Notes: generated by a model not told the origin, from the letters alone. A stretch of 64,000 bases of DNA from Clostridia bacterium (GCA_017510245.1 JAFWNQ010000013.1:3361-67360), one strand, 5' to 3'; counted from the first letter of the stretch, positions 3,714 to 43,454 are shown. Numbers and translations: made by a program.

Positions 3714-4193
3714 ATGACTAGCACAGAAAGTAAAGTTGAAAAAATAGTTAAGCCGGTTATTGAAAAACTAGGTTATGTACTATATGATGTCATTTATGAA
3801 AAAGAAGGAAAGGATAATTATTTAAGAATATTTATAGACAAAGATGGAATAATCAGCATAAATGACTGTGAAAATGTTAATAATGCTATAACAGATATTT
3901 TAGATGAGAATGATATAATTAAGAATTCATACATGTTAGAAGTATCATCTCCTGGAATAGAAAAAAGGCTTAGAAGTGATGAACATTTAGAACAAAACAT
4001 TGATAAGAAAATTGAAATACACACATTTAAAAATGATGAAAGCACAAATTCAAAAATAATATTAGGATTTTTAAAAGGTTTCGACAACGATTATGTAAAA
4101 ATAGATGTTACAGAAAATGATAAACTAAGGACAATAAGTATTAATAAGAAAAACATTTCAAAAATAACAACAGTATATGATTGGGAGGTATAA
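3714..4193 (+). CDS. rimP: Ribosome maturation factor RimP
   Basis: 159 aa, matching the RimP size and the conserved rimP-nusA-infB gene order. RBS AGGAAGGA upstream. Confidence 0.8.
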   Translation: MTSTESKVEKIVKPVIEKLGYVLYDVIYEKEGKDNYLRIFIDKDGIISINDCENVNNAITDILDENDIIKNSYMLEVSSPGIEKRLRSDEHLEQNIDKKIEIHTFKNDESTNSKIILGFLKGFDNDYVKIDVTENDKLRTISINKKNISKITTVYDWEV

Positions 4194-24597: not shown

Positions 24598-25563
24598 ATG
24601 AATAAGTATGTTTGTAAAATAGCAACAAAAGATGAAATAATTGAGAAATTCAATTATGAAATAGAAAAACATCCAAATGATAATAGATGGTCAATATGGA
24701 AAAATGAGGCATTGCAATGGTATAAACAAGGAAAAATAATTGTATATATTGGAATTCTAAATGGAGAAATTATTACCGAAGCTACTGCAATAATAGATAA
24801 GACAGCAGTTCAAAATGCAGGCGAAAAAATGGACGATGATGAATTAGTAAATAGTACTATGGCATATTTAAGTGCTTTTAGAACTAAAGCTGAATATGAA
24901 GGCAAGGGATATTTTTCAAGACTATACAAGTATATGGAGAATGATCTAAAAGGTAAAGGATACAAGCGTCTTTCACTTGGAGTCGAGCCAAAAGAAGTTA
25001 GAAATATGAAAATTTATTTCAATTGGGGCTTTGACAGATTCATAAAAACTGCATATGAAACATATCCACCAAAAAATGATTATGTTGATGAAGAAAGCAT
25101 TTTAGTTAATTATTATTATAAAGATTTAGAAGATGTTGCAAAAATATATAAATTGAAATATAATAAGAGTACAAAAAAAGGTGGAGGAAAGAAAATGAGA
25201 AAAATAGTATTTTATAGATGTAATGAATGTGGTAAAATTGAATGTGTGATTGATGGAGAAAACAAAGAATTGATGTGTTGCGGAAAGCCAATGGAAGAAT
25301 TAAAACCAAATACAGTAGATGCAGCAGTTGAAAAACACGTTCCAGTATACGAAGAAGATGGTGATATGATAAAAGTAAAAGTAGGTGATGTAGAGCATCC
25401 TATGACAGAAGAGCATTATATTATGTGGATAGCTTACTTTGATAATAGCAAAGTATTCTTGAAAAGGTTAAATCCAACAGATAAACCAGAAGCTGAATTT
25501 AAAAAGACAGATTTATTTGAAATATATGCATTTTGCAATTTACATGGACTTTGGAAAAAATAG
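24598..25563 (+). CDS. dfx: In-frame fusion ORF: GNAT-like acetyltransferase N-terminal domain + desulfoferrodoxin (superoxide reductase) C-terminal module
   Basis: The C-terminal 122 aa carry the desulforedoxin site CNECGKIE...CCGKPM and the SOR centre EKHVPV...HPMTEEHYIMWIAYF...C..H. An internal RBS AGGTGGAGGAAAG lies 7 nt before an in-frame ATG at 25195. The N-terminal ~199 aa carry the GNAT motif-A-like RTKAEYEGKGYFSRL. Confidence 0.7.
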   Translation: MNKYVCKIATKDEIIEKFNYEIEKHPNDNRWSIWKNEALQWYKQGKIIVYIGILNGEIITEATAIIDKTAVQNAGEKMDDDELVNSTMAYLSAFRTKAEYEGKGYFSRLYKYMENDLKGKGYKRLSLGVEPKEVRNMKIYFNWGFDRFIKTAYETYPPKNDYVDEESILVNYYYKDLEDVAKIYKLKYNKSTKKGGGKKMRKIVFYRCNECGKIECVIDGENKELMCCGKPMEELKPNTVDAAVEKHVPVYEEDGDMIKVKVGDVEHPMTEEHYIMWIAYFDNSKVFLKRLNPTDKPEAEFKKTDLFEIYAFCNLHGLWKK

Positions 25564-28310: not shown

Positions 28311-28811
28311 ATGAAAAAGATACTGTTTAATGTACTAGTAATCATCTATGTAGTAATTGCAATATTTACGACAATGTGCTTATTAAATTACAATGAGTAC
28401 AAGGTTTCACAATTTGGAGATAAAACACTAGTTATCATTGATAAGGATGAAGAAGGTATAGATTATAAAAAAGGAGACTTAGTAATTGTTGATAAAAAGG
28501 GGTATGAGTCAGCGAATGAAGGAGATACCTTAATTTTCTATGAAAATGATGGAATAAAAATTACTAAGATATTAAAGAAAAATGACTTTGGGGATGCAGG
28601 AATAACATTTACAATTGATGGAAATTATCAGGTTGTTCATGAAAATGTTATTGGAATAGCTAAAAATGCAAAAGTTATTAGTAAGGTTGGAGGAATATTA
28701 GGCTTACTTCAATCAAAATGGGGCTTTTTATTCTTGATAGTATTCCCTTCACTTTTAGCATTTTTACATCAAGTATATGAACTAATACTTGAATTATCTA
28801 ATAAAGAATAA
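28311..28811 (+). CDS. Degenerate SipW-like (S26) signal peptidase paralog lacking the catalytic Ser and His
   Basis: SipW topology (N- and C-terminal TM) and GDLVIV box are kept. The catalytic SGSMEP is replaced by SQFGDK. The ITHR His motif is replaced by IKITKI. Confidence 0.55.
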   Translation: MKKILFNVLVIIYVVIAIFTTMCLLNYNEYKVSQFGDKTLVIIDKDEEGIDYKKGDLVIVDKKGYESANEGDTLIFYENDGIKITKILKKNDFGDAGITFTIDGNYQVVHENVIGIAKNAKVISKVGGILGLLQSKWGFLFLIVFPSLLAFLHQVYELILELSNKE

Positions 28812-28827
28812 TATCAAAGGAATAAGT

Positions 28828-29445
28828 ATGAAGAAAACATGGTTTTTAGTAGGAGCACTCATGTTGCTAATTACAACATATGAAATAATAAGTTCATATG
28901 CGAAGTATACATCGGAAGCTACTGGAACAATAGAAAAAAATGCTGGAGCATGGATGATTAAAGTAAATGATAGTAATATTGCTACCGGCAATTTGGAAAC
29001 AACATTTAATATTGATAGTTTAACATATCCATCTAATGATTTAGTGGCTGAGAATAAAATAGCACCATCATCTAGTGGATATTTTGATGTAGAGATAGAT
29101 GCAACTGGTAGTAGTGTAGCTGTTAGATATGATATAACACTAGACACGGCACAAATGAATATTAGCGAAGGAATACATTTTCAAAATGCTTACAAAGTTG
29201 TAAATAATTCTGAAGTTTCAGAAGGAATTATAAGAACTGGCGCAAATACATATTCTGGAATAATATCTTTGAACAGCATACAAAATGGTGAAAAATGTAA
29301 ATTACGTTTTTATATAGGTTGGGATGAAGATGAGTCTGGAGAGTCAGATGAAAACGACTCAGTATTAGGTCATTTAAAAGATATTTCAACATCTCTGCCA
29401 GTTGAAGTTGTTGTTACACAGTATTTAGGAGAAGAAATATCTTAA
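28828..29445 (+). CDS. TasA/camelysin-family secreted protein with SipW-cognate-class signal peptide
   Basis: MKKTWFLVGALMLLITTYEIISSYAKYTSEATG signal. RBS AAGGAATAAGT. Confidence 0.7.
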   Translation: MKKTWFLVGALMLLITTYEIISSYAKYTSEATGTIEKNAGAWMIKVNDSNIATGNLETTFNIDSLTYPSNDLVAENKIAPSSSGYFDVEIDATGSSVAVRYDITLDTAQMNISEGIHFQNAYKVVNNSEVSEGIIRTGANTYSGIISLNSIQNGEKCKLRFYIGWDEDESGESDENDSVLGHLKDISTSLPVEVVVTQYLGEEIS

Positions 29446-29459: not shown

Positions 29460-30050
29460 ATGGATTTAATAAACAAAATAGTAAAAATTTTTTTTAATAT
29501 AATACTATCATTAACTGTATTAATATTTATAATTGTAGTTTATAACTTTTTTCAAATTGAAATTCTAAAGAAAGACTATACTGCTTTTTTTGGATATACT
29601 TCATTTGAAGTAGTAAGTGGAAGCATGTCAGAAACAATAGAAATAGATGATTTGGTAATAGTTAAAATAACAGATGACTTGCAAGAAAATGACATAATCT
29701 CTTTTAAAGATAATGATGAAATAATAACACATAGACTAATTAAAATTGATGAAAATACACTTTATACAAAAGGAGATGCTAATAACTCAGAAGATAAAAC
29801 AATAGATAAATCTCAAGTTATTGGAAAAGTAATAAAAGTATTACCCAGATTTGGAATTTGGGTAAAAGTTTTTTCAGACACAAAAGTTATAATATCGATA
29901 ATTATAACATTATTGCTATTTGGATTTGCAATAGAGAAAGAAGAGAATAAAGATATAACTGATTCAAAAGAAAAAAAATCTTTATATAGGTTTATGAGAA
30001 ATAGGAGAGAAAAGAAGAATGGGAAGAGCGAGGAGAAGGGAGAAAGCTAG
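29460..30050 (+). CDS. sipW: Signal peptidase I, SipW type (archaeal/ER-like S26B)
   Basis: Catalytic VVSGSMSETIEIDDLVIV and IITHRLI motifs. C-terminal TM plus a Lys/Glu/Arg-rich tail. Confidence 0.8.
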   Translation: MDLINKIVKIFFNIILSLTVLIFIIVVYNFFQIEILKKDYTAFFGYTSFEVVSGSMSETIEIDDLVIVKITDDLQENDIISFKDNDEIITHRLIKIDENTLYTKGDANNSEDKTIDKSQVIGKVIKVLPRFGIWVKVFSDTKVIISIIITLLLFGFAIEKEENKDITDSKEKKSLYRFMRNRREKKNGKSEEKGES

Positions 30051-30594
30051 AGCATTATATAAAAAAATTGCTTTCTTTATTATATCTATATTGCTAATCA
30101 TAACTACAATTAGATTTACCCTGTCCAGATACAGATCAAGAGGACATTCAGATGCAAATGTAGATTTGGCTTTTTACTTATTTAAAGAAGAAAGTATATC
30201 TCAAGAACTAAAACTGGAAAGCATTCTGCCTAGGGAGTTGCCCTATGTATATGACTTATATGTAGCAAATCACGATGATACAGATAGAACAGAAACATCA
30301 ATTCAGTATACAATACAAATAATGACAACAACTAATTTACCATTAAATTTTAGTGTCTATAAGGATGATAACACTGAAGAAGACCTTGTAACAGGTATAG
30401 AAACAAGAACAGATACTGATGGAACATATTATAAATTCATAGATGTTCAAGGAGGAAGCTTTGGATTCAGAAACGATGAAGAAGCTACATATAAACTTCA
30501 TGTAACATTTCCTAAAATATATAATCAGTCAGAATATGAAGGCATAGTAGAATATGTTAAAATTACGATAAAATCTAATCAAAAGTTAGAATAA
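30019..30594 (+). CDS. Secreted protein with variant SipW-cognate-like signal (TLSRYRS)
   Basis: Basic N-terminus, TM, then FTLSRYRSRG. Overlaps the sipW 3' end by 32 nt in another frame. Confidence 0.5.
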   Translation: MGRARRREKARALYKKIAFFIISILLIITTIRFTLSRYRSRGHSDANVDLAFYLFKEESISQELKLESILPRELPYVYDLYVANHDDTDRTETSIQYTIQIMTTTNLPLNFSVYKDDNTEEDLVTGIETRTDTDGTYYKFIDVQGGSFGFRNDEEATYKLHVTFPKIYNQSEYEGIVEYVKITIKSNQKLE

Positions 30595-30609: not shown

Positions 30610-31494
30610 GTGGATAAAAATATTTCAAATAAAAAGAAGAAAAGAAAATCAAGAAGAAGACATAAACAACCTAATTTTATATTGATACTAATAGTATTTG
30701 TTATAGCTATATTTCTTATGCCTAAATTTATATCAACAGCGAAGTATATTTATAATGTAGTACATGAACATTATTTATCTTCAAAAGACTTTTTCTTCAC
30801 AAGTGATAAATTGAGTATAAATCACACAGAATATGAAATAACAAATAACTGGTCTGGAGCAGAAACCTATGTAATTACTGTTAACATGAGTAGTAAAGAA
30901 AATGATATGGCATATACAGAATCTGATATTAAGTATCAGATTTCATATACTTGCTCAGATAATATTAGTTGCACTTTAAATAAAAATGAAGGAACTATAG
31001 TAGGAACTGATAATAATGGGGTTAATGAAGACTACTTTACTGCTAGTATAAATCCTGCTGGAGGAACTGCACTAGCTGAAGGTGAAGTTGCATGGATTGA
31101 ATTAACTGCTACATCTACAGAGCCATATACTCAAACGTTGACTGGAAAACTTATACTTGAAGTTGGTTCAGCAGAAATAACCTATGAAATAATTGATTCT
31201 GAAAATCAACCATATTTAACAGTTAATATAACAAATTCACAGAGTGTTGGAACAGATGTAACATTATCTTATAGTCCTAATACACTATTGTTAGATATGA
31301 CAAGTAGATTTAGACTAAATTCTAATAATCACGGAGATGAAACAATAAACGGTTATAGCTATTATAATAGCATAACATCATATGTAGAATCATTGAGCAC
31401 AACTTCAGTTAAGTTTTACAAAAAAGATCCAACACAAAACTATTCATATACTAACGGATCTAGTGGTACACCAGTAATAACATTAACGCATTAG
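30610..31494 (+). CDS. TasA-like secreted protein (signal ...FISTAKYIYNV)
   Basis: Poly-basic N-terminus, TM, and a SipW-cognate-like motif. Thr/Ser-rich beta-rich body. Confidence 0.55.
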   Translation: MDKNISNKKKKRKSRRRHKQPNFILILIVFVIAIFLMPKFISTAKYIYNVVHEHYLSSKDFFFTSDKLSINHTEYEITNNWSGAETYVITVNMSSKENDMAYTESDIKYQISYTCSDNISCTLNKNEGTIVGTDNNGVNEDYFTASINPAGGTALAEGEVAWIELTATSTEPYTQTLTGKLILEVGSAEITYEIIDSENQPYLTVNITNSQSVGTDVTLSYSPNTLLLDMTSRFRLNSNNHGDETINGYSYYNSITSYVESLSTTSVKFYKKDPTQNYSYTNGSSGTPVITLTH

Positions 31495-31506: not shown

Positions 31507-32514
31507 ATGACAACAAATTTAATGGAACAATATTTAAATATTACAAAACTCTTTATTAAGGAGTTTACAAAGCTTTTCCTAGAAGAAGAATATAAAGAAG
31601 ATATTTCGAAAGAATTTATATCAGCATATATAGATTCTAGAATATATAATTATAGTGGAAATAATGAAAAGTTTTTTTATAAAAGAATTTACCAGAACTT
31701 AATAAACATTAAAAATGAACTAATTGGTAAACTTGATAAGAATTTAGAAAAAGCTATAGAAGATAATCTAAGAATTTATCAATTTGTATTCTACATTGAT
31801 GGAGTTAGACCAATTGGTGATTTAAATGAGTTTGTAAAACTAATATGTGAAAAGAGAAAAGAAATAATAGATAAAAATGAAACAAAAGATACAAACTTAT
31901 CATTTAATAGATTGATAAAGAAATATAATGAAGATAAAGAAAAGTTTTTTAAGAATTATGAAACTACAGATTTTTCTCTTGAAATAGAAAAATACATTTT
32001 AGTTGATGATACATATAAAGCAAAGCTTAAATACAATTTTAGAATTCCATATATATATAGTCAAAAAGTAATAGATGAAGTGTACAATAGTGGAACAGTT
32101 AATGAGGACAAATTGATTATAGAATATACTTTACTAACTCTAAACTGTATAAAAGAGATTAATAATGGAAATTTTACTACAAAGTATTTAGTCGAATTTG
32201 CAAATACTCTTTTTGACAAAAGTAACAAAATAAAACAATCGCTTAGAGTTCTTAATAATCAAGCAATACAGGAAAAAATAATTCTAAAAGTTAATTATGC
32301 TGATTATGAAGAAAATAAGGAACTTTTCTATGAGTTAATAAAGGAAGGATTTAAATTTGCAATTATAATTGATAATTCATTTAAAGCAGATATGATAAAT
32401 CTAAAAAAACTAAACATGTTTGACTATTTATTAGTGCCAGAAAAAAGTGAAAACTACTATGACATAAAGTATTATGAGAATAACATTACAAATATTGTAA
32501 TATATGATGTATGA
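31507..32514 (+). CDS. Cytoplasmic hypothetical protein of the cluster
   Basis: 335 aa, no TM, Lys/Glu/Tyr-rich. Confidence 0.45.
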   Translation: MTTNLMEQYLNITKLFIKEFTKLFLEEEYKEDISKEFISAYIDSRIYNYSGNNEKFFYKRIYQNLINIKNELIGKLDKNLEKAIEDNLRIYQFVFYIDGVRPIGDLNEFVKLICEKRKEIIDKNETKDTNLSFNRLIKKYNEDKEKFFKNYETTDFSLEIEKYILVDDTYKAKLKYNFRIPYIYSQKVIDEVYNSGTVNEDKLIIEYTLLTLNCIKEINNGNFTTKYLVEFANTLFDKSNKIKQSLRVLNNQAIQEKIILKVNYADYEENKELFYELIKEGFKFAIIIDNSFKADMINLKKLNMFDYLLVPEKSENYYDIKYYENNITNIVIYDV

Positions 32515-32529: not shown

Positions 32530-34065
32530 ATGGATACATTTTTGAGATTTTTATATGAACTAATAAACCAAATAGTATCAGGGATATTCTCGATTTTTAA
32601 AGGATTCATTGAAGGATTTAAACAAATTTTTAATTTTACTGCATTCTACAATTTAGTAACACACTATAAAAATGACTTTTCAGGTCCAGAATGGTTATTA
32701 GTAGCTATAACAGTGTTATTTATGATAGTGTTATATGGAGGAACTCTATTCCTAATTGTATTTGGAATAAAAAAACTAATAAAGAGAATTAAACCTATAA
32801 ACAAAGGCGAATTATTAAATGAAGTAGATGAGCTAAACAAAAAAGTAATAAAACTATCTAAAGAAAAAGACGAGATATTAGCAATGAAAGTTTCCCAACT
32901 TGGATTAAAACCAGATCAGCCATTAGAAGGTGATGAAACTGTAGAAGGCGAGGCACAAGAAGGTGAAGAAGCAGTTGGAGAAAATGGAATAAGATTTTCT
33001 AAATTAAATCTAATAGATATGGAGTATGCTGACTACAAAATAAAGAACTATGGAAATTCTTTTGACTTACCAGAGCTATGTGATAATTTTAGAAATTTTG
33101 CAGCATCTAAATTAAAACTATTTTATAAAGAAAGACTTATTAGAACATTTGTGGCAGGTCTAGCATCAACAAGACTAGTTATTCTACAAGGTATCTCAGG
33201 TACTGGTAAAACATCTCTTGCTTATGCTTGGGGAAAGTTTATGAAACAAGATTCTTGCGTAGCATCAGTTCAACCATCTTGGAGAGATAGAACTGACTTG
33301 TTTGGATATTTTAATGAATTTACAAAGAAATTTAATGAAACAGAATTGTTAAAAGAGATGTATATAGCCGACTATACTGATGATGTTTATACAGTAATAC
33401 TAGACGAGATGAACTTATCACGTGTTGAGTATTATTTTGCTGAAATGCTATCAATACTTGAAATGCCAGACAAGAAAGAATGGATAATTGAAATTGTTCC
33501 AAACACATGGGCAAGTGATCCAAAGAAATTAATACAAGGAAAAATACAAGTACCACCGAATATGTGGTATATTGGAACAATTAATAATGATGATTCAACA
33601 TTTGCTGTAACAGATAAGGTGTATGATAGAGCAATGCCTATAGATATTAATGAAAAGGGAGAACCTTTCACACCAGATGATATTGATGCACAGAATATTA
33701 ACTATTCATATTTAGATAAACTGTTTACTGAAGCAATGGAAAATTTTGAAATATCTCAAGAAACACTAGATAAGATAGAAAAAATGGATGACTTTGTTAT
33801 CAAGCACTTCAGAATTGCTTTTGGTAACCGTATTGTTGCACATATGAAAAAGTTTGTTCCAGTATATGTAGCATGTGGTGGAACAGAAGTAGAAGGGGTA
33901 GATTACTTTATAGCTAAAAAGATTCTAAGAAAATTTGAACAATTAAATATGGCATTAATTAGAGATGAAATTGATGGATACATAAAGTTTTTAGATGATA
34001 CATTTGGAAAGGGAGCAATGGCAGAATGCATTGAATACTTATTAAGACTTAAGAAGATGGCATAG
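32530..34065 (+). CDS. Membrane-anchored McrB-like AAA+ (AAA_5) NTPase
   Basis: TM helix at residues ~55-80, a coiled coil, an acidic linker, then Walker A ILQGISGTGKTS and a McrB-type Walker B/sensor TVILDEMNLSRVEYYFAEMLSILE. Confidence 0.65.
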   Translation: MDTFLRFLYELINQIVSGIFSIFKGFIEGFKQIFNFTAFYNLVTHYKNDFSGPEWLLVAITVLFMIVLYGGTLFLIVFGIKKLIKRIKPINKGELLNEVDELNKKVIKLSKEKDEILAMKVSQLGLKPDQPLEGDETVEGEAQEGEEAVGENGIRFSKLNLIDMEYADYKIKNYGNSFDLPELCDNFRNFAASKLKLFYKERLIRTFVAGLASTRLVILQGISGTGKTSLAYAWGKFMKQDSCVASVQPSWRDRTDLFGYFNEFTKKFNETELLKEMYIADYTDDVYTVILDEMNLSRVEYYFAEMLSILEMPDKKEWIIEIVPNTWASDPKKLIQGKIQVPPNMWYIGTINNDDSTFAVTDKVYDRAMPIDINEKGEPFTPDDIDAQNINYSYLDKLFTEAMENFEISQETLDKIEKMDDFVIKHFRIAFGNRIVAHMKKFVPVYVACGGTEVEGVDYFIAKKILRKFEQLNMALIRDEIDGYIKFLDDTFGKGAMAECIEYLLRLKKMA

Positions 34066-34077
34066 GAGGAGCATTTA

Positions 34078-35160
34078 ATGAGAGAACTTGAAGTTACGAA
34101 TTTATATGATAGTATTGATGAACAAAGACTGGAAGATTTCAATAGCAAATTGGATTCTAGCATGAGGGTTAAAACTGATTACTTTAAGGATGATAATGAT
34201 TTTGAATGGGTAGATAAATTTGAACAATTATTACCTTATATAGAAAAGATACTTAGAAATCCAAAAAGATTTATTACAACAGAAGAAGAAATTGTAAAAA
34301 TTGAATCAGCAAAGAAAGTTGGAGTTGAAACAGTAAAACATCTTGCAAAGCATACTAATTATATACAAGATATTGATGAAGAATCAGGAGATGTAATACC
34401 ATCAAAACTATTGAATGTATTAAAAGAAGAAACATTTAATACATATGAAAATAGATTTATTTATACATTAATTCAAAGAGTTAGAGACTTTATAAAAAAA
34501 CGTAAAGATAATATAAAAAGTAATCCACGACTTAAGGATAATAAAAAGGTTGAGTATACAAGTTCAACAATGGTTGGAGAAGAAAAAATTAATGTTAATA
34601 TTCAATTAAATACTGACCTTGACACTAAAACTGAGGTAGATAAAAGAATACTAGAAAGAATCAAAAAGATAGAAGACAATGTTAAAGACATGCAATATAC
34701 TGAAGTTTATAAAGAATTAGAAAAAGAAGGAGTGCCACTTGTTACTCCACCAATAAAGAAAACTAATGTAATATTGAAAAATGTTAATTTCCAATATGCT
34801 ATGACATTATGGGATTACGTTAATGAAAATATTAGTAAAAAGGATAATCCAGTAAAAAAGAATAAAGATTATATGGAAAAAGGATCAATAAAAGGTTTGA
34901 TTGATGAGACTTTTTTACTTGAGTATTTAACAGTAAATAATATTAATAAGGATGAAGAATTTATTAAAGATGCAAAGGAAAAAACCTTAAGTAGAATGTT
35001 AGATAAAATTATTGACTTGAATCCTGAATTAACAAAAAAGGAATTACAAGAAAAACTAGGTTTAGAATTTGATAAAGCAATAGAAAGAAGAATTGCTACA
35101 AAGAATGACATAGAAAAAATATTCAGAAAATATTTAAACAGATATCTTGAAAAAGTATAA
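34078..35160 (+). CDS. Partner protein of the McrB-like NTPase (possible McrC-like/DUF2357-like; unverified)
   Basis: Starts 13 nt after the AAA+ gene. 360 aa, charged, no TM. No clear PD-(D/E)xK motif seen. Confidence 0.4.
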   Translation: MRELEVTNLYDSIDEQRLEDFNSKLDSSMRVKTDYFKDDNDFEWVDKFEQLLPYIEKILRNPKRFITTEEEIVKIESAKKVGVETVKHLAKHTNYIQDIDEESGDVIPSKLLNVLKEETFNTYENRFIYTLIQRVRDFIKKRKDNIKSNPRLKDNKKVEYTSSTMVGEEKINVNIQLNTDLDTKTEVDKRILERIKKIEDNVKDMQYTEVYKELEKEGVPLVTPPIKKTNVILKNVNFQYAMTLWDYVNENISKKDNPVKKNKDYMEKGSIKGLIDETFLLEYLTVNNINKDEEFIKDAKEKTLSRMLDKIIDLNPELTKKELQEKLGLEFDKAIERRIATKNDIEKIFRKYLNRYLEKV

Positions 35161-35172: not shown

Positions 35173-35829
35173 ATGATGATAAAAATAATAAAGGGAATTT
35201 GGGCAGTAATTAGAGCAATATTGTCTGTACTATTAGTAATACTATTGGCAATAGTTCTTACGCAAAGATTAACAAATAACAAAAATGCTGTTTTAGGATT
35301 TAGAATTTTTACTGTTGTTACAGAAAGTATGGTTCCACAGTTTGAAGTAGGAGATGCTATTTTTACTAAACAAATTCAACCTTCTGAAATAAAAGTAGGA
35401 GATGATGTTACTTATATAGGTACAGAGGGAAGCTTTAAAGATAAAATAGTAACTCACAAAGTTATTAAAGCAGAGAAGAATGAGGAAGGTAAATACATAT
35501 TTGTAACTAAAGGAATTGCAAATGAAAAGGAAGATCCTGAAATAAATGAAACACAGATTTATGGAAAAGTATTATATAAAATAAGAAGCATTTCGTATAT
35601 TAATAGAGTAATTGGTAATCTATATGGAATGTACTTTGCAATATTTATCCCATTAGGAATAATAATGTTTATAGAGTATGCTGGTTATAAAAAGGACTTA
35701 AAAGATGAGCTTGAAGAAGAAAATGAAGAGGACGAAGAATTAGAAGAAAATAAGATAGATAAGCATAAAGAGAGAAGAATGGAAAGACGAAAAAAAAGGA
35801 GAGAAAAAAGGAGTAATAAAGAAAAGTAA
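35173..35829 (+). CDS. sipW: Signal peptidase I, SipW type (second copy)
   Basis: VVTESMVPQF Ser box, IVTHKVI His box, C-terminal TM and a KRREKRS tail. Confidence 0.75.
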   Translation: MMIKIIKGIWAVIRAILSVLLVILLAIVLTQRLTNNKNAVLGFRIFTVVTESMVPQFEVGDAIFTKQIQPSEIKVGDDVTYIGTEGSFKDKIVTHKVIKAEKNEEGKYIFVTKGIANEKEDPEINETQIYGKVLYKIRSISYINRVIGNLYGMYFAIFIPLGIIMFIEYAGYKKDLKDELEEENEEDEELEENKIDKHKERRMERRKKRREKRSNKEK

Positions 35830-35873: not shown

Positions 35874-36530
35874 ATGAATAAAAAAAGAAAAGAAAAGCTT
35901 TCAAGAAGACAAAGAAGAATAAAAAAAAGAGTTACATTTAGAACTTTATTTTTACTAGCTATAACCCTAATTTTTAATACCTATGCATGGTTCCTATATA
36001 TAACTACTGTTTCTTCTAGCATTACTGCCCATGTTGAAGCGTGGCATGTTGAATTCAAAGTTGATGATGATGTGGTTGAGAAAGAATTACCTATTGTTGT
36101 TGAACACGCATATCCTGGAATGCAAGACGTTGAAAAAACAATAGATATAATAAATGGAGGAGAAAGAAGTGCTGATATTCAGTACATAATAAAACATGTA
36201 AGAATCTTTGATACATTGTATGTGGCTACTGACCAGCTTGAATCTGGCGAATCAGTTCCAGCAGGTGCGGAAACTTCTACTTCCAGCGGACTTATTTCAA
36301 AGATACAGAATGATTATCCTTTTTCTATTACAATATCGACAAGTGACGGCACAATTGCTGCATCAGAGCAGGGAAGCCTTACTGTTACGTTTACGTGGCA
36401 ATATGAATCAGGTGATGATGCTACTGATACTGATTATGGAACAGAGGCGTATACTTATTATCAAGACAATCCTGGAAGTGATGCAATAGAAATATTACTA
36501 AAACTAACAGTAACACAACATGAAGACTAG
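35874..36530 (+). CDS. TasA-like secreted protein (signal ...NTYAWFLY)
   Basis: RRQRRIKKR then TM, then TYAWF. Asp/Thr-rich C-terminus. Confidence 0.6.
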   Translation: MNKKRKEKLSRRQRRIKKRVTFRTLFLLAITLIFNTYAWFLYITTVSSSITAHVEAWHVEFKVDDDVVEKELPIVVEHAYPGMQDVEKTIDIINGGERSADIQYIIKHVRIFDTLYVATDQLESGESVPAGAETSTSSGLISKIQNDYPFSITISTSDGTIAASEQGSLTVTFTWQYESGDDATDTDYGTEAYTYYQDNPGSDAIEILLKLTVTQHED

Positions 36531-36654
36531 TATAAAGGTTTTTGTAAAAAGAAATAACATATTAACAAATGATTATACTTATATAAAAACGTAAAAAAAG
36601 AAATGTGAAGAGGACTTAATAAAAAGTTCATTACACATTTCTTTTTTTACGTTT

Positions 36655-37266
36655 TTATGCTGTTAACTGCTCAAAAACAATATTTGCTTCTATTACTGCC
36701 TTGCCATTACTAATGGCAATTGCTGTATCTTCAATGTCATTAAGTGTTTCTGTATCGTGGTCATCATTCCAAGTGACATAAACTCTAATTGTTGAAGAAT
36801 TAACTGAACTTGCTGAACTACCAACTATACTGGTTTGATCTGAAGTTAAGTAGGTGATGTTTTCTTGAAGTCCTGGATAAGAGTATCCTGCAACTTTTAC
36901 ATCTGAAATATCATTTACACTAGTGCCAGAAACAGTAATCGTATATTTAAAAGCTAATGAAATATTAGATGAATCAATTACTAAATCAAAATATCCCATA
37001 GCACTTGGAACTATATAGTCTGGATCATAGTAATCATTTTCTGAAAATATTAAGTTTAGAGTTTGACTAAAATCAGAATTCTGAATAATATCCTGATTAT
37101 TTAATAGAATTTTCCAACCGTCAATTGCAAAATTAGCATTTGAATCAATTGACGATAAATATTTTGCATAAGTAGACCTAATTATTAATAATGAAATAAT
37201 TAACCAAACAAATGCAAAAAATAGTATTATTTTTTTCTTCATAAGAGTACTTTTCCTTTCTAACAA
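36655..37266 (-). CDS. TasA/camelysin-like secreted protein (signal ...RSTYAKYLSS), opposite strand
   Basis: MKKKIILFFAFVWLIISLLIIRSTYAKYLSSIDSNANF. Confidence 0.65.
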   Translation of the reverse strand: MLERKSTLMKKKIILFFAFVWLIISLLIIRSTYAKYLSSIDSNANFAIDGWKILLNNQDIIQNSDFSQTLNLIFSENDYYDPDYIVPSAMGYFDLVIDSSNISLAFKYTITVSGTSVNDISDVKVAGYSYPGLQENITYLTSDQTSIVGSSASSVNSSTIRVYVTWNDDHDTETLNDIEDTAIAISNGKAVIEANIVFEQLTA

Positions 37267-37486
37267 TGCTGAGTAGCATACAAAAGTATTAATAATCTAA
37301 CTAATTTATATTATAACATATTTAGACAAAATAAAAAGAAATATTACAGAAATGTTAAAAATATGTAAAAATAATGCAAAGAAAATGTAAAAACTTTGTA
37401 ATTGTATTACTCAATACAATATGCTATACTTTGTATAAATCAATATTGTATATATTGTTTATTCACAAAAAAAGTTGGTGTTACAC

Positions 37487-38263
37487 ATGCAAGAAAATCA
37501 AGAAAACCATAGTGTTGACAATCTAAAGAAAGACAATGTCGAAAAAGGAAAAAAAATATCTGAGAAAAGAGAAACAAGGAAGAAAGCAAAAAAAATATCA
37601 GATATAGGAGAAAGAACAAAAAAACTGAAGAATATCCTTATAATAATGCTACTATTCTTATTAATACTTTACTTTGTTTTAAGAATAGCTTATGAAACAG
37701 GAAGGTTTACAGTAGTTCTTGATTCTTCATCAGATATGAAAGGCGCTTTGGTAATGTATGCAAACAAAAACGAAAAACTAACTAGAAGAACATTACAAGC
37801 AGATGTTTTAGATTTTATGACTAACATTTCAGGGGATTGGATACCAGAAAACATTAATGATGAGGCAGATGGTGGACACAATGGGGAAAACTATATTGCA
37901 TATACATTCTATATTGAAAATATGGCTGACGAAACAATTCATTATTGGTATAGAATTTATATTGATGATATAGTAAGAAATGTTGATAAAGCAATTAGAG
38001 TAGCAGTTTACTTGAATGGTGAAAAAACAGTATATGCAAAAGCAAACAGTAGAACATCCGAACCTGAAAAAGATACAGTAGCATTTAAAGATGAAGAAAA
38101 TGTTATGTTGGTTCAAAGGAGAGATTTTAAATCTAAGGATGTAGACAAATTTACTGTTGTAATATGGGTTGAAGGTGATGATCCTGATTGCATAGATGAC
38201 CTGATCGGTGGAGAAATGAAAATGCACATGACCATAACTGAAGAACATATTAAACAAGAATAA
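37487..38263 (+). CDS. Secreted protein with variant SipW-cognate-like signal and a conserved C-terminal IWVEGDDPDCID motif
   Basis: N-terminal KK-rich region, then TM, then RIAYETGRFT. The C-terminus is homologous to that of 38287..39288. Confidence 0.55.
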   Translation: MQENQENHSVDNLKKDNVEKGKKISEKRETRKKAKKISDIGERTKKLKNILIIMLLFLLILYFVLRIAYETGRFTVVLDSSSDMKGALVMYANKNEKLTRRTLQADVLDFMTNISGDWIPENINDEADGGHNGENYIAYTFYIENMADETIHYWYRIYIDDIVRNVDKAIRVAVYLNGEKTVYAKANSRTSEPEKDTVAFKDEENVMLVQRRDFKSKDVDKFTVVIWVEGDDPDCIDDLIGGEMKMHMTITEEHIKQE

Positions 38264-38286
38264 ACTTAAGGAAAAAGGAGAAAAAA

Positions 38287-39288
38287 ATGGGAAGAAGAAG
38301 TAGAAAAAGTAAGAGAAGATTAAATTCTATGTTTTTAGCAGTATTGCTATCAGCAGTTATGCTAATAGTAACAACATATGCATGGTTTTCTTCAAACAGA
38401 ACAGTTTCAATTGAAGGAATTACAGCAAAAGTTGCAGCAGCAAATGGCCTACAAATATCGTTGGATGGTGCAAACTGGGGCTCAAGTGTTACAGTAAATA
38501 CAACTACACTTGCAGCAGCAGATGACTATAATGACTATGTATTTCCAAATGAATTACATCCAGTATCAACAACAGGGACAACGCTTGATTCAGGAGATGT
38601 TAGTTTCTTTGCTGGATTAGTTAGCTCAGATGGATCAAAATTAACAAGTGCAGCACAGGCTGGTGCAGCAGATAATTTTATAGTATTCGATGTATATTTA
38701 AAAAATGCATCATCACAAACTTCAGATAATTTACAATTAGATACAAATACAGAAGTTAAATTAGGTGCTACAGAAGGAAAAGAGGGTGTAAGAGACACGG
38801 GTCTTGAGAATAGTGTTAGAACTGGATTCTTATTATATCCAACAACAGCACAATTTACAGCAGCTCAATCAGCTATAGCATCATTAGGTGGAGATAGCCC
38901 ATTAGTAGGAATTTGGGAACCTAACTACAATAAACATATTTTGGAAGTTGCAACTAATGACCCAAGAGTTGAAGAATCAACAACTAGTGATTTTAAAACT
39001 TTAGGATTATTAAATGCTGGTTCAGGAACACTAACTGGAATTGATGGAACTGATGATACAGACTTTATGGCAGAAACAAAGACAATAAGAACTGATGCTA
39101 AATTAACTGCACCTGTAAACCTTACAGCTGTAGATGAGACTGGAACTCAGTTTTCACTACCAGGAAATACAATTTCTAGAATGAGAGTATATATATGGTT
39201 AGAAGGACAAGATCCAGACTGTATAGACACAGCATCAACTGGTAAATATTTAGACTTCTTAATTAATTTAGCGAAGCCAACAGTTTAG
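38287..39288 (+). CDS. TasA-like secreted protein (signal ...TTYAWFSSN) with C-terminal IWLEGQDPDCID motif
   Basis: MGRRSRKSKRRLNSMFLAVLLSAVMLIVTTYAWFSSNRTV. Ala/Thr/Gly-rich beta body. Confidence 0.65.
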   Translation: MGRRSRKSKRRLNSMFLAVLLSAVMLIVTTYAWFSSNRTVSIEGITAKVAAANGLQISLDGANWGSSVTVNTTTLAAADDYNDYVFPNELHPVSTTGTTLDSGDVSFFAGLVSSDGSKLTSAAQAGAADNFIVFDVYLKNASSQTSDNLQLDTNTEVKLGATEGKEGVRDTGLENSVRTGFLLYPTTAQFTAAQSAIASLGGDSPLVGIWEPNYNKHILEVATNDPRVEESTTSDFKTLGLLNAGSGTLTGIDGTDDTDFMAETKTIRTDAKLTAPVNLTAVDETGTQFSLPGNTISRMRVYIWLEGQDPDCIDTASTGKYLDFLINLAKPTV

Positions 39289-39567: not shown

Positions 39568-41187
39568 ATGAAAAAAGAATTAGGAGCATTAGAAAAACTA
39601 AATAATCAAATTGACGTTGATAAAGAAGTTCTATCTGTTCTACCTAAAAATAATAAAAGGAATTTACAAGCATATAAAAACAAGGCTGATGAAATAAAAC
39701 ATGAATATGTAAATCTCTATGATAATGTTATTTTAGAACTAAAGAGAAGGACAATTAAGATTAAATCCATTGAGATAGATCCTAAGATTGAACAATTAGA
39801 AAATCAAATTAAGGAAATGGATAATGTTAAATTACTTGATAATAATATTACTTCTTTTGAAAAAATGGAATTAGAGGAAGTTCTTTATACACTAAAAAGA
39901 TTTTATAAGAATAATCTAGAACTAGTAAATGAAGCAATTGTTGCCTGCTTAGATAAATTTAGAATGGCAGGGATTAATTTAAGACAAGAAGACTTTGACT
40001 ATAGTATATATACAAATGAATATATGAGAGTATTTTTAGATGATATGAGAAAGGGAGACATTAATTCTTCTCGAATTAAAGATACATTTGAACAAATATA
40101 TTGGAAATGCTCAGATATTATAATTCATATAGAACTAAACTTTAGAAGTTTATATTTTAAATATGAAAAACAAATAAACAAATACTTCTCTGATATTAGT
40201 AAAGATAATATAAAGAGAATTGGACTTAATGAAAAAGAGGCAATTGAAAGATATAATGCATTGCAAAGCCAATTATTAGAGTTAAAAAATAGAGACACTT
40301 CATTAATTGTAGAAAGATTTTTAAAAAATGAAAAAAATCCAAAAGATTATGAAGAATCAAGTATAGAAAAGAATTATAAAAAATTAATTGGTAAAGATGT
40401 AAATGAATTGACTCCTGAAGAGCTTGTAGAAATTAATAAAAATATATACAGACTTCAAAATAGCTTATATGAATATAAACATTATTTAGAATTTAAGTAT
40501 ATATATGATGATGCAATAGAGGTATACAAAGATAATGAAAAATATAAAAACCTATATAACCAAAAGTATAAACAAATTAAAAAATTAGAGTCAAAATTAC
40601 GTAAAGCTAATAATAGGTTAAAAAAATATGAAAACCATATTGGAATTTTAAAAAAGATATTTAAAAGAAATACTAATAGGTTGGAAGAAGCAAATATAGA
40701 TATAAACAGCATTATTTTACAGTTAAGAGATGAATATAGAAAACTTGAAGAATACAAAACAAAAAATATCATTTCTACTGTGTTAAATGATGGATCTACT
40801 ATTTATGATGTTCTTATATTAGTATGTCAATTTCATAATTTTTTGGTTGACAGTATTATAAAGCAGAATCCCGATATAACTCAAGAAAACATTGAAGAAA
40901 GTATTAAGAAATATAATAGTTTTGTAAAATATCCTAGAATTACAATTATAAACAATATTAATATTAATGAAGATAAGAATATGGTTTTAATGATTAAGGA
41001 TAAGTACAATTTATGTAATCTTAATATTGAAAAGGGTGATTTAGATGTGGATAATTTGCCAAATCTAATAACTACAGTTAATAATATATGTGACAGTAAT
41101 TATATAAAAAATAGTAGTATTTCTGTTGATGAAATAAAATTTGTTTTGCAGAGTGAAAAGATACTAATTGAAAACAACAAGATATAG
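39568..41187 (+). CDS. Large coiled-coil cytoplasmic protein
   Basis: 539 aa with Lys/Glu-rich heptad-like repeats and no TM. Confidence 0.5.
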   Translation: MKKELGALEKLNNQIDVDKEVLSVLPKNNKRNLQAYKNKADEIKHEYVNLYDNVILELKRRTIKIKSIEIDPKIEQLENQIKEMDNVKLLDNNITSFEKMELEEVLYTLKRFYKNNLELVNEAIVACLDKFRMAGINLRQEDFDYSIYTNEYMRVFLDDMRKGDINSSRIKDTFEQIYWKCSDIIIHIELNFRSLYFKYEKQINKYFSDISKDNIKRIGLNEKEAIERYNALQSQLLELKNRDTSLIVERFLKNEKNPKDYEESSIEKNYKKLIGKDVNELTPEELVEINKNIYRLQNSLYEYKHYLEFKYIYDDAIEVYKDNEKYKNLYNQKYKQIKKLESKLRKANNRLKKYENHIGILKKIFKRNTNRLEEANIDINSIILQLRDEYRKLEEYKTKNIISTVLNDGSTIYDVLILVCQFHNFLVDSIIKQNPDITQENIEESIKKYNSFVKYPRITIINNININEDKNMVLMIKDKYNLCNLNIEKGDLDVDNLPNLITTVNNICDSNYIKNSSISVDEIKFVLQSEKILIENNKI

Positions 41188-41217: not shown

Positions 41218-41805
41218 ATGACAATACAAAAGAATGGAGATATTAAATTATTAAAAGCAATTATAGTTTATCTTGCATATATAATAATTGTACCTTTTAT
41301 CATATATGATGTATATCTAATTGCACACAAAATTATGAATCCAAATTCTTCTCCTGAAATATTTGGAATGAAAACATTTAATATTATTTCAGGGAGTATG
41401 GAACCTAATATAAGTGTTGATGATATAGTAATTACAAAAAAGTGTGATAAGCTGGATATTCAATTGAATGATATTATCACATATAGAGCTGAAGGAGAAA
41501 CTATAACACATAGAGTTATCAATATAGAATTTATTAATAATAAAGTCTACTATACAACAAAGGGTGATTCTAATGAAGTGGCTGATTTAAAAAAAGTAGA
41601 GTATAGTCAAATAGAAGGTAAATATGTTGGAAGAATACCAAAGATAGGAAAGATATTTATTTTCTTTAAGAATAGTATAAACTTTTTTATAACTTTAACA
41701 ATTCTATTCTTATGCTACTTATGGCAGAGGAAAAGTATAAAAAAGAAGATTTTAAGAAAAGAAAAGAGAATTAAATTTGAAAGAAAAATGAGTTACACTA
41801 AATAG
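41218..41805 (+). CDS. sipW: Signal peptidase I, SipW type (third catalytic copy)
   Basis: ISGSMEPNISVDDIVI and ITHRVI motifs. N- and C-terminal TM helices. Confidence 0.8.
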   Translation: MTIQKNGDIKLLKAIIVYLAYIIIVPFIIYDVYLIAHKIMNPNSSPEIFGMKTFNIISGSMEPNISVDDIVITKKCDKLDIQLNDIITYRAEGETITHRVINIEFINNKVYYTTKGDSNEVADLKKVEYSQIEGKYVGRIPKIGKIFIFFKNSINFFITLTILFLCYLWQRKSIKKKILRKEKRIKFERKMSYTK

Positions 41806-41828: not shown

Positions 41829-43454
41829 TTATTTTTTTAATGGTAAATCATATTTAATTTTAAAACATGAGAATTTATCTAATTCATTATCATCTAAACA
41901 ATCTAAATAAATATCTAATTCATCCAAATCCTTACAAGCAGAAATGATAGCAGGATTTAAATCGGATTGAAACATTAATTCGAATCCTAACTCAATGGCT
42001 TCTTTTAAAGAACCTTTTTCTTTCTTTTTAATTAATTGAAAAGCTTCTCTAAATCTAGACTTAATTGGATTTTTGTATGTCTCCATAGGAACGACATACT
42101 CTTTTTCAATAATCTCTTCTAAACTAGAATACTTATTACTTGATTTTAATTTTTCCTTTATATCATCAAGCTTATAAGGAAGAATTACTTTTTTATTAGA
42201 ATCTGAAATAATTAAAGTATCATTATCTGATAAAGTATAGGTACTATCAATAATACTTGTTTCTGCTATATCATCATCTTGCTTAACGACTTTTTTATCT
42301 TCAGAAGATATATCATCATTATTCTGATCTGAATTATTATTTGCATCAGAATTATTATTGTTTTCAGCTGGAGAATTTTCAATAATTGTTTCTGCTTTTG
42401 CTTTTGCATTTGAAGAAGTCTTTTTTTGTTCAACTTTATCAAGTTCTTTAGTGATTTGAACTTCAGGCTCTATAGTTTCTTCAACGATATTATCATTATT
42501 TTCTGATAAAGAAGTAGAAGTGTGTGATAGTATGCTAGAATCAAAGCTTTCATCAGTAAAATTAATAATTCCACTTTCAGCTACTAGATTTACTTCACTA
42601 TTTGATATTTCTATTTCTATAAAATCATCACTTTTTGATACTTTAGAAACTTTGGTAATAGGTGATAATTCTAATTTTTCATTTGTGATAATTTTATAAT
42701 TTGATTTTATTTTTGCAATGTATAAGATATCACCATTGCTTGAATTTGAAATTTGAACACCTGATGTTTTTAATGATAAATTAAAACTTTCATCTTTAAT
42801 ATGTATGCTTGCAACTTCATTTTTAAATGAAATCTTATAATTTTCTTGAACTGTTGAAATTACTAAACTATCAGTTTCCTTTTTAGGAAAGAAACATAAT
42901 AGATCTGAAGCATATACATCAACATTTTTTTTGATAAAATCAAATTCTGATTTTGTTTTTTGACTACTTGAAGAAGAATATGTAATATCAAGGAAAGAAC
43001 AAGGCTTTAAAATATCATTTTTATATTTGTTTAGATTTGCTGAAATCTTTATATCTTCTTTGGAAGCAATGTTTTCAAAGTTAGTAATTGTTTGATAAAG
43101 AAGACTTTGAAGCAATTCAATATCATTATTTGTTTTTAATACTAGAGCATTATAAGTATTAATGTCTTTTGCGCTAAGTTTAAATTGCTTTTCTAATAAG
43201 TCTAAAGCATCATTTAAAGAATCTATACCTTCAACAATTGAATCAATTTGTTCAAGTGAACTTGTCAAATTATTCAAAAACATTGTTTTAATGTATTCAT
43301 TATCTATTTGTAATTCTTTAAATTCAGCAATATAAGAAGATAAAGAATTCTTAATATCTTTTTCATAAATAATATATTCATTTACAAGCTTTTTTTCAGC
43401 ATGTACCAATGCTTTAACATTTGTTTTTTTTTGAATTTTGTAGCATGTTAACAT
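41829..43454 (-). CDS. Coiled-coil / Ser-Asn-Asp-rich hypothetical protein, divergent from the giant protein gene
   Basis: 541 aa, no TM. Bidirectional terminator GAGTTACAC/GTGTAACTC at its 3' end (41786..41815). Confidence 0.45.
   Translation of the reverse strand: MLTCYKIQKKTNVKALVHAEKKLVNEYIIYEKDIKNSLSSYIAEFKELQIDNEYIKTMFLNNLTSSLEQIDSIVEGIDSLNDALDLLEKQFKLSAKDINTYNALVLKTNNDIELLQSLLYQTITNFENIASKEDIKISANLNKYKNDILKPCSFLDITYSSSSSQKTKSEFDFIKKNVDVYASDLLCFFPKKETDSLVISTVQENYKISFKNEVASIHIKDESFNLSLKTSGVQISNSSNGDILYIAKIKSNYKIITNEKLELSPITKVSKVSKSDDFIEIEISNSEVNLVAESGIINFTDESFDSSILSHTSTSLSENNDNIVEETIEPEVQITKELDKVEQKKTSSNAKAKAETIIENSPAENNNNSDANNNSDQNNDDISSEDKKVVKQDDDIAETSIIDSTYTLSDNDTLIISDSNKKVILPYKLDDIKEKLKSSNKYSSLEEIIEKEYVVPMETYKNPIKSRFREAFQLIKKKEKGSLKEAIELGFELMFQSDLNPAIISACKDLDELDIYLDCLDDNELDKFSCFKIKYDLPLKK

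Follow-up and report, generated by a model that had tools for sequence, protein, structure and literature searches.

McrBC is the textbook GTP-driven restriction enzyme. Here, an McrBC-like gene pair is described that lies among genes for SipW-type signal peptidases in a 64,000-nucleotide stretch of Clostridia bacterium DNA (GCA_017510245.1, JAFWNQ010000013.1:3361-67360; the whole stretch is referred to as the window). The pair consists of two co-directional open reading frames (ORFs), the McrB-like ORF A at 32530-34065 (511 amino acids, aa) and the McrC-like ORF B at 34078-35160 (360 aa), both found where an earlier note on this DNA, made from the sequence alone, had placed them. The closest systems described so far are those in a study by Bell et al. 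(eLife 2024, PMC11090510). In the passages of that paper that bear on them, McrB GTPases fused to an FtsB-like transmembrane (TM) and coiled-coil region and associated with signal peptidases are named CoCoPALM, the coiled coils being usually present on both the McrB and the McrC homologues. They are assigned to the NxD branch of McrB GTPases, in which the NxD is usually followed by E or by a second D. The class is given one paragraph there, without analysis, and is deferred to a future paper. Apart from a 2023 preprint and this 2024 paper, a search of the available literature found no publication on CoCoPALM, and the supplement examined contains no CoCoPALM entries.

The pair in the window displays the same combination: an NxD-type McrB GTPase with an N-terminal TM helix and coiled coil, an McrC homologue with an extra predicted helical region, and signal-peptidase genes, with four SipW-like genes in the cluster. 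None of its features contradicts membership as the class is outlined in that paragraph. The pair is a clear member of the named CoCoPALM class and, judged by motif only, of the NxD branch. The concept itself is not new; the earlier note had expected a co-opted motor of this kind to be so, but the architecture already carries a name (PMC11090510). Very probably, the window holds a CoCoPALM-type, nuclease-free derivative of McrBC that is integrated in a SipW locus. The features of the pair, and the gene directly upstream of it, are the following.

31507-32514, plus strand: degenerate EAL-like protein, 335 aa, recognised by structure prediction and structure comparison
32530-34065, plus strand: ORF A, membrane-anchored McrB-family (NxD-type) GTPase, 511 aa, recognised by its McrB matches
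32692-32769, plus strand: TM helix of ORF A, residues ~55-80, with Kyte-Doolittle values of up to 2.55 in 19-residue windows
32803-32910, plus strand: leucine-zipper coiled coil of ORF A, residues ~92-127, heptad L95-V99-L102-V106-L109-I116
32911-32985, plus strand: acidic linker of ORF A, residues 128-152, with 10 D/E and 0 K/R in 25 residues
33190-33213, plus strand: Walker A motif GISGTGKT of ORF A, residues 221-228, invariant in the alignment of ORF A orthologues (A1)
33397-33414, plus strand: Walker B motif ILDEMN of ORF A, residues 290-295, invariant in A1
33583-33594, plus strand: McrB signature N352-N353-D354-D355 of ORF A, of the Nx(x)D type that takes the place of sensor 1, invariant in A1 and aligned to McrB
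34078-35160, plus strand: ORF B, McrC-like partner without a detectable nuclease, 360 aa, recognised by DUF2357

When ORF A was compared with all PDB sequences by phmmer, E. coli McrB alone was returned (6ut6 and 7vsr, E=1.1e-6; 6hz4, 9e-6). The alignment covers residues 153-373 and pairs GISGTGKT with GPPGVGKT, ILDEMN with IIDEIN and GTINNDDS with GLMNTADRS. The McrB-type NTPase that the earlier note had read from these motifs is thereby borne out, and the motif it quoted, residues 290-311 (ILDEMNLSRVEYYFAEMLSILE), is present. The NCBIfam McrB model matched at 6e-7, far under its equivalog cut-off, and ORF A is therefore a relative of McrB and not an orthologue. Pfam AAA_5, suggested earlier as a check, scored below threshold (E=0.006) and was dropped as a classifier; the assignment was made through PDB, NCBIfam, PADLOC and the motifs instead. 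The PADLOC model concerned is the defence candidate PDC-M26A, which matches the GTPase core alone (residues 196-319, 1.8e-35); a match to both components of PDC-M26 was not obtained, as ORF B and ORF 31507 match no PADLOC model. When all representatives of 50%-identity clusters were searched, 765 clusters were obtained at E<=1e-30, of which the best 150 were examined. Throughout these 150 the signature reads GT[AI]N-x-D-[DE]-ST with a variable x, and the NNDD of ORF A is for that reason read as NxD followed by D and not as NxxD. Judged from these matches, ORF A is a genuine McrB-family GTPase, of the NxD clade by motif.

The DNA-reading N-terminal domain of McrB is, in the predicted ORF A protein, replaced by an N-terminal segment, a TM helix, a zipper and an acidic linker, the last three of which had been pointed out in the earlier note and were all recovered. 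The protein opens with an invariant M-D/E-T-F-x-R-F-L-Y-E in A1, and the invariant P53-E54-W55 begins the TM helix, which is itself kept in that alignment. KKLIKRIK follows directly after the helix, and by the positive-inside rule the C-terminal GTPase would be cytoplasmic. The zipper extends over 3-4 heptads, with L95, L102, L109 and I116 invariant in A1. In the linker the acidity is kept among the orthologues while length and sequence vary.

ORF B carries the McrC N-terminal domain, DUF2357 (PF09823), in residues 29-155 (nt 34162-34542), with E=5.3e-18 and 65.6 bits against a cut-off of 23.3. Searches of Pfam, NCBIfam, PADLOC and PDB sequences returned nothing beyond DUF2357, and no nuclease family was among the matches. 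An AlphaFold2 (AF2) model of ORF B gave no Foldseek match in PDB at E<=1e-3. The C-terminal half is helical and charged, with long helices modelled at low confidence in residues 270-359, and a conserved D...(D/E)xK was not found there in the 28-sequence alignment A2. Conservation in the same alignment peaks at residues 58-125 (…RNPKRFITTEEEIVKIE…KEETFNTYENRF…), a segment that AF2 also models with low confidence. Strong conservation combined with poor modelling would suit a part that folds only within the ring of its partner, comparable to the segment with which McrC reaches into the pore of McrB. The earlier note had placed the ORF in the McrC position and seen no obvious PD-(D/E)xK site; both observations stand, but the relationship was understated, as the DUF2357 match, which also answers the Pfam check proposed for ORF B, shows the protein to be derived from McrC. 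The predicted ORF B product is thus McrC-derived, with its PD-(D/E)xK nuclease lost to detection.

The window is AT-rich throughout (~28% G+C, GC), and its plus strand holds almost all genes. ORF A and ORF B are located in the middle of a long co-directional cluster that extends from 28311 to at least 51290. In addition to the three genes above it contains the following.

28311-28811, plus strand: degenerate SipW-like protein, which opens the conserved cluster (TIGR02228 only at E=1e-3)
28789-29445, 30019-30594 and 30610-31494, plus strand: three putative SipW substrates or fibre subunits, interleaved with the 29460 peptidase gene
29460-30050, plus strand: SipW/archaeal-type signal peptidase I (TIGR02228, SipW, Peptidase_S24)
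35173-35829, plus strand: SipW/archaeal-type signal peptidase I, the cytoplasmic tail of which is long and highly charged (TIGR02228, 2.4e-23)
35874-36530 (plus strand), 36655-37266 (minus strand), 37475-38263 (plus strand) and 38287-39288 (plus strand): four more putative secreted subunits, judged from their N-termini
41218-41805, plus strand: SipW/archaeal-type signal peptidase I (SipW, 4.6e-25; TIGR02228, 8e-24)
43611-51290, plus strand: giant protein of 2559 aa with a SipW-substrate-like N-terminus

The gaps around the pair are short, with 15 nt between the stop of 31507-32514 and ORF A, 12 nt between ORF A and ORF B, and 12 nt between ORF B and the 35173 gene. Each gene has a Shine-Dalgarno sequence of its own (AGAGGTG for ORF A, GGAGGAG for ORF B, GGAG for the 35173 gene). 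A scan of 27.5-44 kb for consensus promoters and terminators detected 121 promoter-like sites where 118.5 were expected and 2 terminators where 3.1 were expected, which is uninformative because of the AT-rich composition. The operon is consequently read from gene spacing and synteny, and these indicate that the pair is co-transcribed with the SipW-type peptidases and their putative substrates.

The conservation of this arrangement was followed by tblastn of all window ORFs against 84 related loci. The McrC-like gene is found directly downstream of the GTPase gene in every one of them (84/84). A SipW-like gene lies within 6 kb of the GTPase gene in 83, and in all 57 loci with at least 4 kb on both flanks. 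The gene order 28311-28789-29460-30019-30610-31507-ORF A-ORF B-35173-35874-36655-37475-38287 is kept, while the outer flanks vary among loci and hold MutS, rplS/trmD or an ABC transporter. Within the cluster, conservation is by far the strongest for ORF A, with a median identity of 66% compared with 41% for ORF B and 30-45% for the other cluster genes, the exception being 37475 at 52%.

More than 8000 homologues of ORF A are present in the protein database; the top 120 are without exception full-length proteins of ~510 aa, with identities of 69-100%. With one genome scanned per GTDB species, at least 582 species genomes encode it. The carriers are nearly all uncultured gut or rumen metagenome-assembled genomes (MAGs), labelled Clostridia, Bacilli, Tenericutes, Mollicutes and even Muribaculaceae bins, and they include two complete chromosomes of 1.26 and 1.55 Mb. 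No isolates were among the retrieved genomes, and the clade is one of widespread small-genome gut Bacillota. Carriage of this form by mobile elements was considered and rejected: close relatives of ORF A are absent from IMG/VR, the INPHARED phage genomes gave two weak matches alone, and matches among the PLSDB plasmids are restricted to the GTPase domain at no more than 42% identity. There are no restriction, toxin or integrase genes close by.

Among the best 150 of the 765 clusters, three architectures were encountered: proteins of ~450-540 aa with 1-2 TM segments, as in ORF A, proteins of 550-730 aa with at least three, and proteins of 700-870 aa without any, the last type being probably CoCoNuT-like. 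The surroundings of the more distant relatives, numbered here by locus, are as follows (percentages are identities to ORF A).

L085, 41%: SipW-like gene and a subunit fragment upstream of the GTPase gene, DUF2357 partner downstream
L086 (2686-8267), 38%: ORF 31507-like, GTPase and McrC-like genes, straight after a prophage holin and an M23/LysM endolysin; the contig ends soon after
L087, 3-TM type: stand-alone pair amid metabolic genes
L089, 34%: 37475-like and 38287-like genes upstream of the GTPase gene
L090, 2-TM type: two tandem pairs adjoining a protein of more than 3176 aa
L092, 48%, GC 43%: GGDEF, EAL, 37475-like, 267-aa, SipW-like, GTPase, DUF2357, SipW-like and 76-aa genes and a 949-aa EAL protein, in this order
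L094, 48%, GC 49%: SipW-like, GTPase, canonical 325-aa EAL protein and McrC-like genes, in this order
L096/97, 49%, GC 31%: subunit-like genes followed by GTPase, McrC-like and SipW-like genes

SipW was found in 5 of the 6 single- or double-TM relatives of 34-49% identity that were examined, and in L089, L092 and L097 the GTPase gene is also adjoined by 37475-like and 38287-like genes. The GC content of relatives L085, L089, L092, L094 and L096/97 ranges from 31 to 49%. The 4.3-kb contig of L085 contains a 451-aa call (2681-4036) that joins an McrC-like N-terminal part with DUF2357 to the C-terminus of ribosomal protein L15 (Ribosomal_L27A), and the fused product is probably an artefact of gene calling or assembly. 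The tandem pairs of L090 (6475-13585) measure 492+668 aa and 517+669 aa, and the second partner has a YDG domain and no detectable DUF2357. They are preceded by a 1095-aa GH3 enzyme and followed by the giant protein, with no SipW gene within 10 kb. The wider membrane-anchored family may include stand-alone, possibly defensive modules.

The earlier note had left two readings side by side, a defence module that had landed in the operon and an AAA+ motor co-opted by the fibre locus. Developed further, the former would make the pair a nuclease-free module for abortive infection, descended from McrBC/CoCoNuT systems and acting on the membrane, for which the SipW operon is merely the place of residence. 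Infection would then be sensed, perhaps through a cyclic nucleotide on the EAL-like protein, and the TM helix and N-terminal segment of the GTPase would damage the membrane. Many defence systems use TM effectors and nucleotide sensors. The GTPase domain matches PDC-M26A, and the relatives of the pair discussed in the CoCoPALM study, McrBC and CoCoNuT, are defence systems (PMC11090510). A defence-type origin or role is also possible because the pair of L087 stands alone and that of L086 lies beside a prophage lysis cassette; the L086 trio could be prophage cargo, and no other single observation speaks as strongly for defence as the role of some family members. Against this, the pair has a fixed place inside the SipW operon in all 84 loci and occurs in at least 582 species genomes, and ORF A evolves more slowly than any other gene of the cluster, whereas defence genes are usually patchy and evolve fast. 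Moreover, the partner and the EAL-like protein match no PADLOC model, this form is absent from IMG/VR and from plasmids, and no restriction, toxin or integrase gene lies nearby. An abortive-infection module, including one that harms the membrane by way of the GTPase anchor, is accordingly considered unlikely here.

The fixed position, the synteny, the conservation, the SipW association in other lineages and the lack of mobile carriage together mark the pair as a component that is inherited vertically and functionally integrated, and not as a mobile defence island. The pair is most likely not a restriction or defence system, because it appears to be co-transcribed and co-inherited with SipW peptidases and about eight proteins with SipW-substrate-like signal peptides, one of them of 2559 aa. 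A module that had merely landed in the operon does not agree with a gene that is the best conserved of its cluster, keeps its SipW neighbours at 34-49% identity and has its close relatives off phages and plasmids. Of the two readings, the co-opted motor is the one that synteny and conservation favour, while the export or assembly role attached to it is an inference from gene context.

The SipW context named in the earlier note is correct; three intact and one degenerate SipW-like genes were found. The 29460 peptidase matches TIGR02228 (2e-18), SipW (2e-14) and Peptidase_S24 (6e-7) and has SGSM and THR motifs, as has the 41218 peptidase, and the 35173 peptidase, present in 83 of the 84 loci, has TESM and THK. 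The Ser and His motifs are hence intact in these three. The 28311 product, conserved in 66 of the 84 loci, keeps both TM segments and is probably a pseudo-peptidase, since the catalytic S-M and T-H-R/K motifs are missing.

About eight proteins of the cluster start with a strongly basic tail, which is followed by a hydrophobic helix and by a motif of the type T-Y-A-W/K-F/Y; these are encoded by 28789, 30019, 30610, 35874, 36655 (minus strand), 37475, 38287 and 43611. Such motifs (TTYAWFSSN etc.) resemble those of SipW substrates of the TasA/camelysin class. The first three have the N-terminal motifs SSYAKY, TLSRYR and STAKYI and are syntenic in 54-77 loci, and the 35874-39288 group, with NTYAWF, STYAKY and TTYAWF, is syntenic in 56-79. 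The 37475 and 38287 products further share a C-terminal W-x-E-G-x-D-P-D-C. The 2559-aa product of 43611 begins with a basic tail, a TM helix and …LISTIAYYF…, has no Pfam or NCBIfam domain, and is matched by partial homologues in the corresponding place of 53 loci; within the cluster, it probably serves as a surface adhesin or as part of the fibre. These features support the view that the neighbours are putative SipW-dependent secreted proteins.

We noticed that the peptidases 29460 and 35173 and the substrates 30610, 35874 and 37475 have unusually long and extremely charged cytoplasmic tails, exemplified by the C-terminus of the 35173 product (…EEENEEDEELEENKIDKHKERRMERRKKRREKRSNKEK) and by the N-terminus of the 37475 product with 60 residues of basic type. 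The acidic linker of the GTPase might dock onto these tails. They also bear on a further explanation, according to which the pair would be a general machine for envelope or membrane-protein housekeeping, either a divisome-associated FtsB-like GTPase or an AAA+ extractor of basic signal peptides and charged peptidase tails that the acidic linker could engage. The extreme conservation in small genomes would suit such a machine, as would the FtsB homology of the stalk according to Bell et al. (PMC11090510). The stalk of ORF A, however, gave no match to Pfam DivIC/FtsB at E<=0.1, so that FtsB homology as such was not reproduced with Pfam, and the pair never adjoins division genes in the loci examined. 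Furthermore, McrC fills the McrB pore (Niu et al. 2020, via the account in PMC11090510), which leaves no obvious geometry for threading a polypeptide. A housekeeping function of either type is held to be improbable.

In canonical McrB, the hydrolysis of GTP is coupled to an action on DNA, and a membrane-anchored McrB-type translocase could be imagined that moves DNA or RNA together with a surface fibre, in uptake or export. Two pseudopilin-like genes are found downstream, at 51464 and 53036. However, neither the two ORFs nor the rest of the cluster gave any match to a nucleic-acid-binding domain, a nuclease, a helicase or a channel protein, and a nucleic-acid translocase is regarded as very improbable. 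The two downstream genes (51464-52987 and 53036-54322, plus strand) are adjacent and share a near-identical type-IV-pilin-like N-terminus, KEKGITL[IV]ALVVTII, with a weak N_methyl match; the 51464-52987 product has in addition DUF285, LRR and Listeria-Bacteroides repeat domains. Their products may be pseudopilin-anchored surface proteins.

A third gene, 31507-32514, was missed by the earlier note. Its 335-aa product is predicted to be cytoplasmic, has no TM helix and consists of an N-terminal helical domain (~1-150) and a C-terminal alpha/beta domain (~150-335), the alignment of which displays an EAL-like strand pattern, EYxLL … LDxSF … YIIV. An AF2 model based on 26 homologues reached a pLDDT of 89 and a pTM of 0.88. 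When this model was compared with PDB by Foldseek, all of the top 50 matches were EAL domains, led by FimX 4f3h (1.2e-4) and including FimX 4ag0, Bd1971, MorA, RocR and LapD. The probability was 1.00 for nearly all of them and 0.92-0.99 for the six weakest, with TM-scores of 0.3-0.5, those on the target being 0.4-0.5, and the match is confined to the C-terminal half. The catalytic EAL residues (the Glu of EAL, Asn, ExxE, DD and KxD) are not conserved in alignments A3/A4. The corresponding strands, matched by eye from the order of secondary structure, are KLKYN, YLVEF, ILKVN, IDNSF and LLVPE, and D289 alone is nearly invariant. The protein is accordingly described as having an EAL-like fold and not as a member of the EAL family by sequence, because the structure matches while the residues and profiles do not.

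Homologues of ORF 31507 are located directly upstream of the GTPase gene in 74 of the 84 loci, and also in L086. Elsewhere, genes of cyclic di-GMP (c-di-GMP) metabolism are found near the pair: the McrB-like/McrC-like pair is flanked by GGDEF, EAL and 949-aa EAL proteins in L092, a canonical 325-aa EAL protein is encoded between the two genes in L094, and in L059, an orthologous locus of 65% identity, a GGDEF diguanylate cyclase gene is divergent at the start of the cluster. These EAL and GGDEF neighbours in other lineages give independent support to a probable c-di-GMP link, and the ORF 31507 product is proposed as a third component, a nucleotide sensor or adaptor. In L059 (5030-7434), spoIVA adjoins the cluster, and organisms of this small-genome type may for that reason sporulate.

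Combined, these elements would give the following machine. As in the McrBC structures of E. coli and T. gammatolerans, ORF A would form a hexameric ring in the cytoplasm. Six zipper/TM stalks would suspend this ring from the membrane, and the conserved residues 58-125 of ORF B would enter its pore and trigger GTP hydrolysis; in McrBC, a basic residue of McrC contacts the signature Asp of McrB and thereby activates hydrolysis (Niu et al. 2020, as related in PMC11090510). Powered by GTP, the ring would work as a switch or motor and govern how, in dependence on SipW, the subunits and the giant protein are processed, assembled or anchored, and the EAL-like product of 31507 would gate the GTPase as a sensor or adaptor of c-di-GMP type. 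The nearest functional analogies would be the FimX-PilZ-PilB control and the control by LapD of a periplasmic protease and a giant adhesin. That the pair is a nucleotide-driven, membrane-anchored GTPase switch or motor for SipW-dependent fibre or pilus biogenesis is judged slightly better than an even proposition. The complete circuit, in which EAL-like protein, GTPase ring and McrC plug form a second-messenger-gated machine that is required for, or licenses, the SipW-dependent assembly or anchoring of a surface fibre made of several subunits and a giant adhesin, is put forward more tentatively, as one that may well turn out otherwise.

Several observations weigh against this scheme. The function of the pair is deduced from sequence context. 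Sec normally exports the substrates of SipW, and their assembly outside the cell needs no NTPase of its own, TasA of B. subtilis being an example; a motor is therefore not obviously needed. The TasA-likeness of the neighbours, also claimed in the earlier note, found no counterpart: Pfam and NCBIfam searches at E up to 10, phmmer against PDB and a 21-sequence profile against PDB were all empty, no sequence similarity of the neighbouring ORFs to TasA, CalY or BsaA was found in Pfam, NCBIfam or PDB, and TasA-like fibres are in this sense unproven. The EAL-like assignment comes from one AF2 model and Foldseek values of E ~1e-4; by sequence, Pfam, NCBIfam and a profile against PDB (hmmsearch) gave no EAL match for ORF 31507, and hhalign against the two canonical EAL proteins of L092 and L094 was negative. 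Nucleotide binding by this protein is uncertain because the catalytic and many ligand-contacting positions are unconserved. Finally, L086, L087 and L090 are relatives without a visible SipW context, and the GTPase domain matches a PADLOC defence-candidate model.

Two in-cluster proteins of ~540 aa (39568-41187, plus strand, and 41829-43454, minus strand) have no TM helix or family match, and homologues are detectable in ~20-28 related loci. Outside the cluster, a 321-aa ORF at 24598-25563 (plus strand) joins an N-terminal GNAT acetyltransferase to a complete desulfoferrodoxin with N-terminal and main domains, which is an unusual fusion.

Should the proposed role be correct, an AAA+ defence motor would have been turned to cell-surface biogenesis after exchanging DNA recognition and nuclease for a membrane anchor. 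Among McrBC derivatives, a function that has nothing to do with nucleic acids would be a first; the machine would also represent a new class of NTPase for pilus or fibre biogenesis, and it would be core to a large, as yet uncultured clade of small-genome gut Bacillota. A required GTPase would also change the view that SipW/TasA-type fibres need no dedicated NTPase. The near-universal conservation across the related MAGs retrieved suggests that the encoded surface structure matters for life in the gut.

Compared with known systems, the pair shares with E. coli McrBC (6ut6, 6hz4, 7vsr) the AAA+ GTPase core, the Walker A and B motifs, the Asn/Asp signature and a DUF2357 partner directly downstream. 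It differs in that ORF A has a membrane stalk in place of the N-terminal DNA-binding domain, that the signature is NxD(D/E) throughout the family and not NxxD, that ORF B has no detectable PD-(D/E)xK nuclease, and that the pair is chromosomal, core and situated in a secretion operon and not in a defence island. With the CoCoNuT systems (CnuB/CnuC), as far as they are characterised in the relevant sections of PMC11090510, it has in common the NxD branch, coiled-coil fusions and an McrC nuclease that is often lost or inactivated. According to the same sections, CoCoNuTs without the McrC nuclease invariably come together with HEPN or other nucleases, and RNA is their predicted target, whereas here no nuclease was found and ORF A has a TM anchor and a SipW context.

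In the FimX-PilZ-PilB circuit, a degenerate, non-catalytic EAL domain is the c-di-GMP receptor that controls a hexameric pilus-assembly NTPase, and in the LapD-LapG-LapA circuit a degenerate EAL domain signals inside-out to an extracytoplasmic protease on which the fate of a giant adhesin depends. The locus in the window likewise holds an NTPase of hexameric type, membrane peptidases and a giant protein, and the EAL domains of those circuits match ORF 31507 structurally. There is, however, no sequence homology, the NTPase is of McrB and not of PilB type, and the peptidases are of SipW type and not LapG. The ligand-contacting residues of ORF 31507 are not evidently conserved, and ligand binding is putative.

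The tapA-sipW-tasA operon of B. subtilis and sipW-bsaA of C. perfringens (PMC11580942) resemble the cluster in that a dedicated SipW-type peptidase is encoded together with secreted polymer-forming substrates, although no homology to TasA or BsaA is detectable in the substrates here. The co-mention of McrB and SipW in PMC11580942 is an E. coli strain genotype and has no bearing on the pair. These operons comprise one peptidase, 1-3 substrates and no NTPase, whereas the cluster in the window has 3-4 peptidase paralogues, about eight substrates and an McrBC-like module. Relative to CoCoPALM, the paragraph devoted to the class and term searches of the main text of PMC11090510 contain no EAL-like gene, no GGDEF/EAL neighbours, no inventory of SipW paralogues and substrates and no mention of conservation in small-genome gut Bacillota. 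The EAL-like upstream gene and the EAL/GGDEF genes flanking the pair in three other loci are new here. What is described is hence not a new class but new, testable details of a known one, and the window provides a complete example of the unexplored CoCoPALM class, with a three-gene cytoplasmic module and a probable c-di-GMP connection as its leads.

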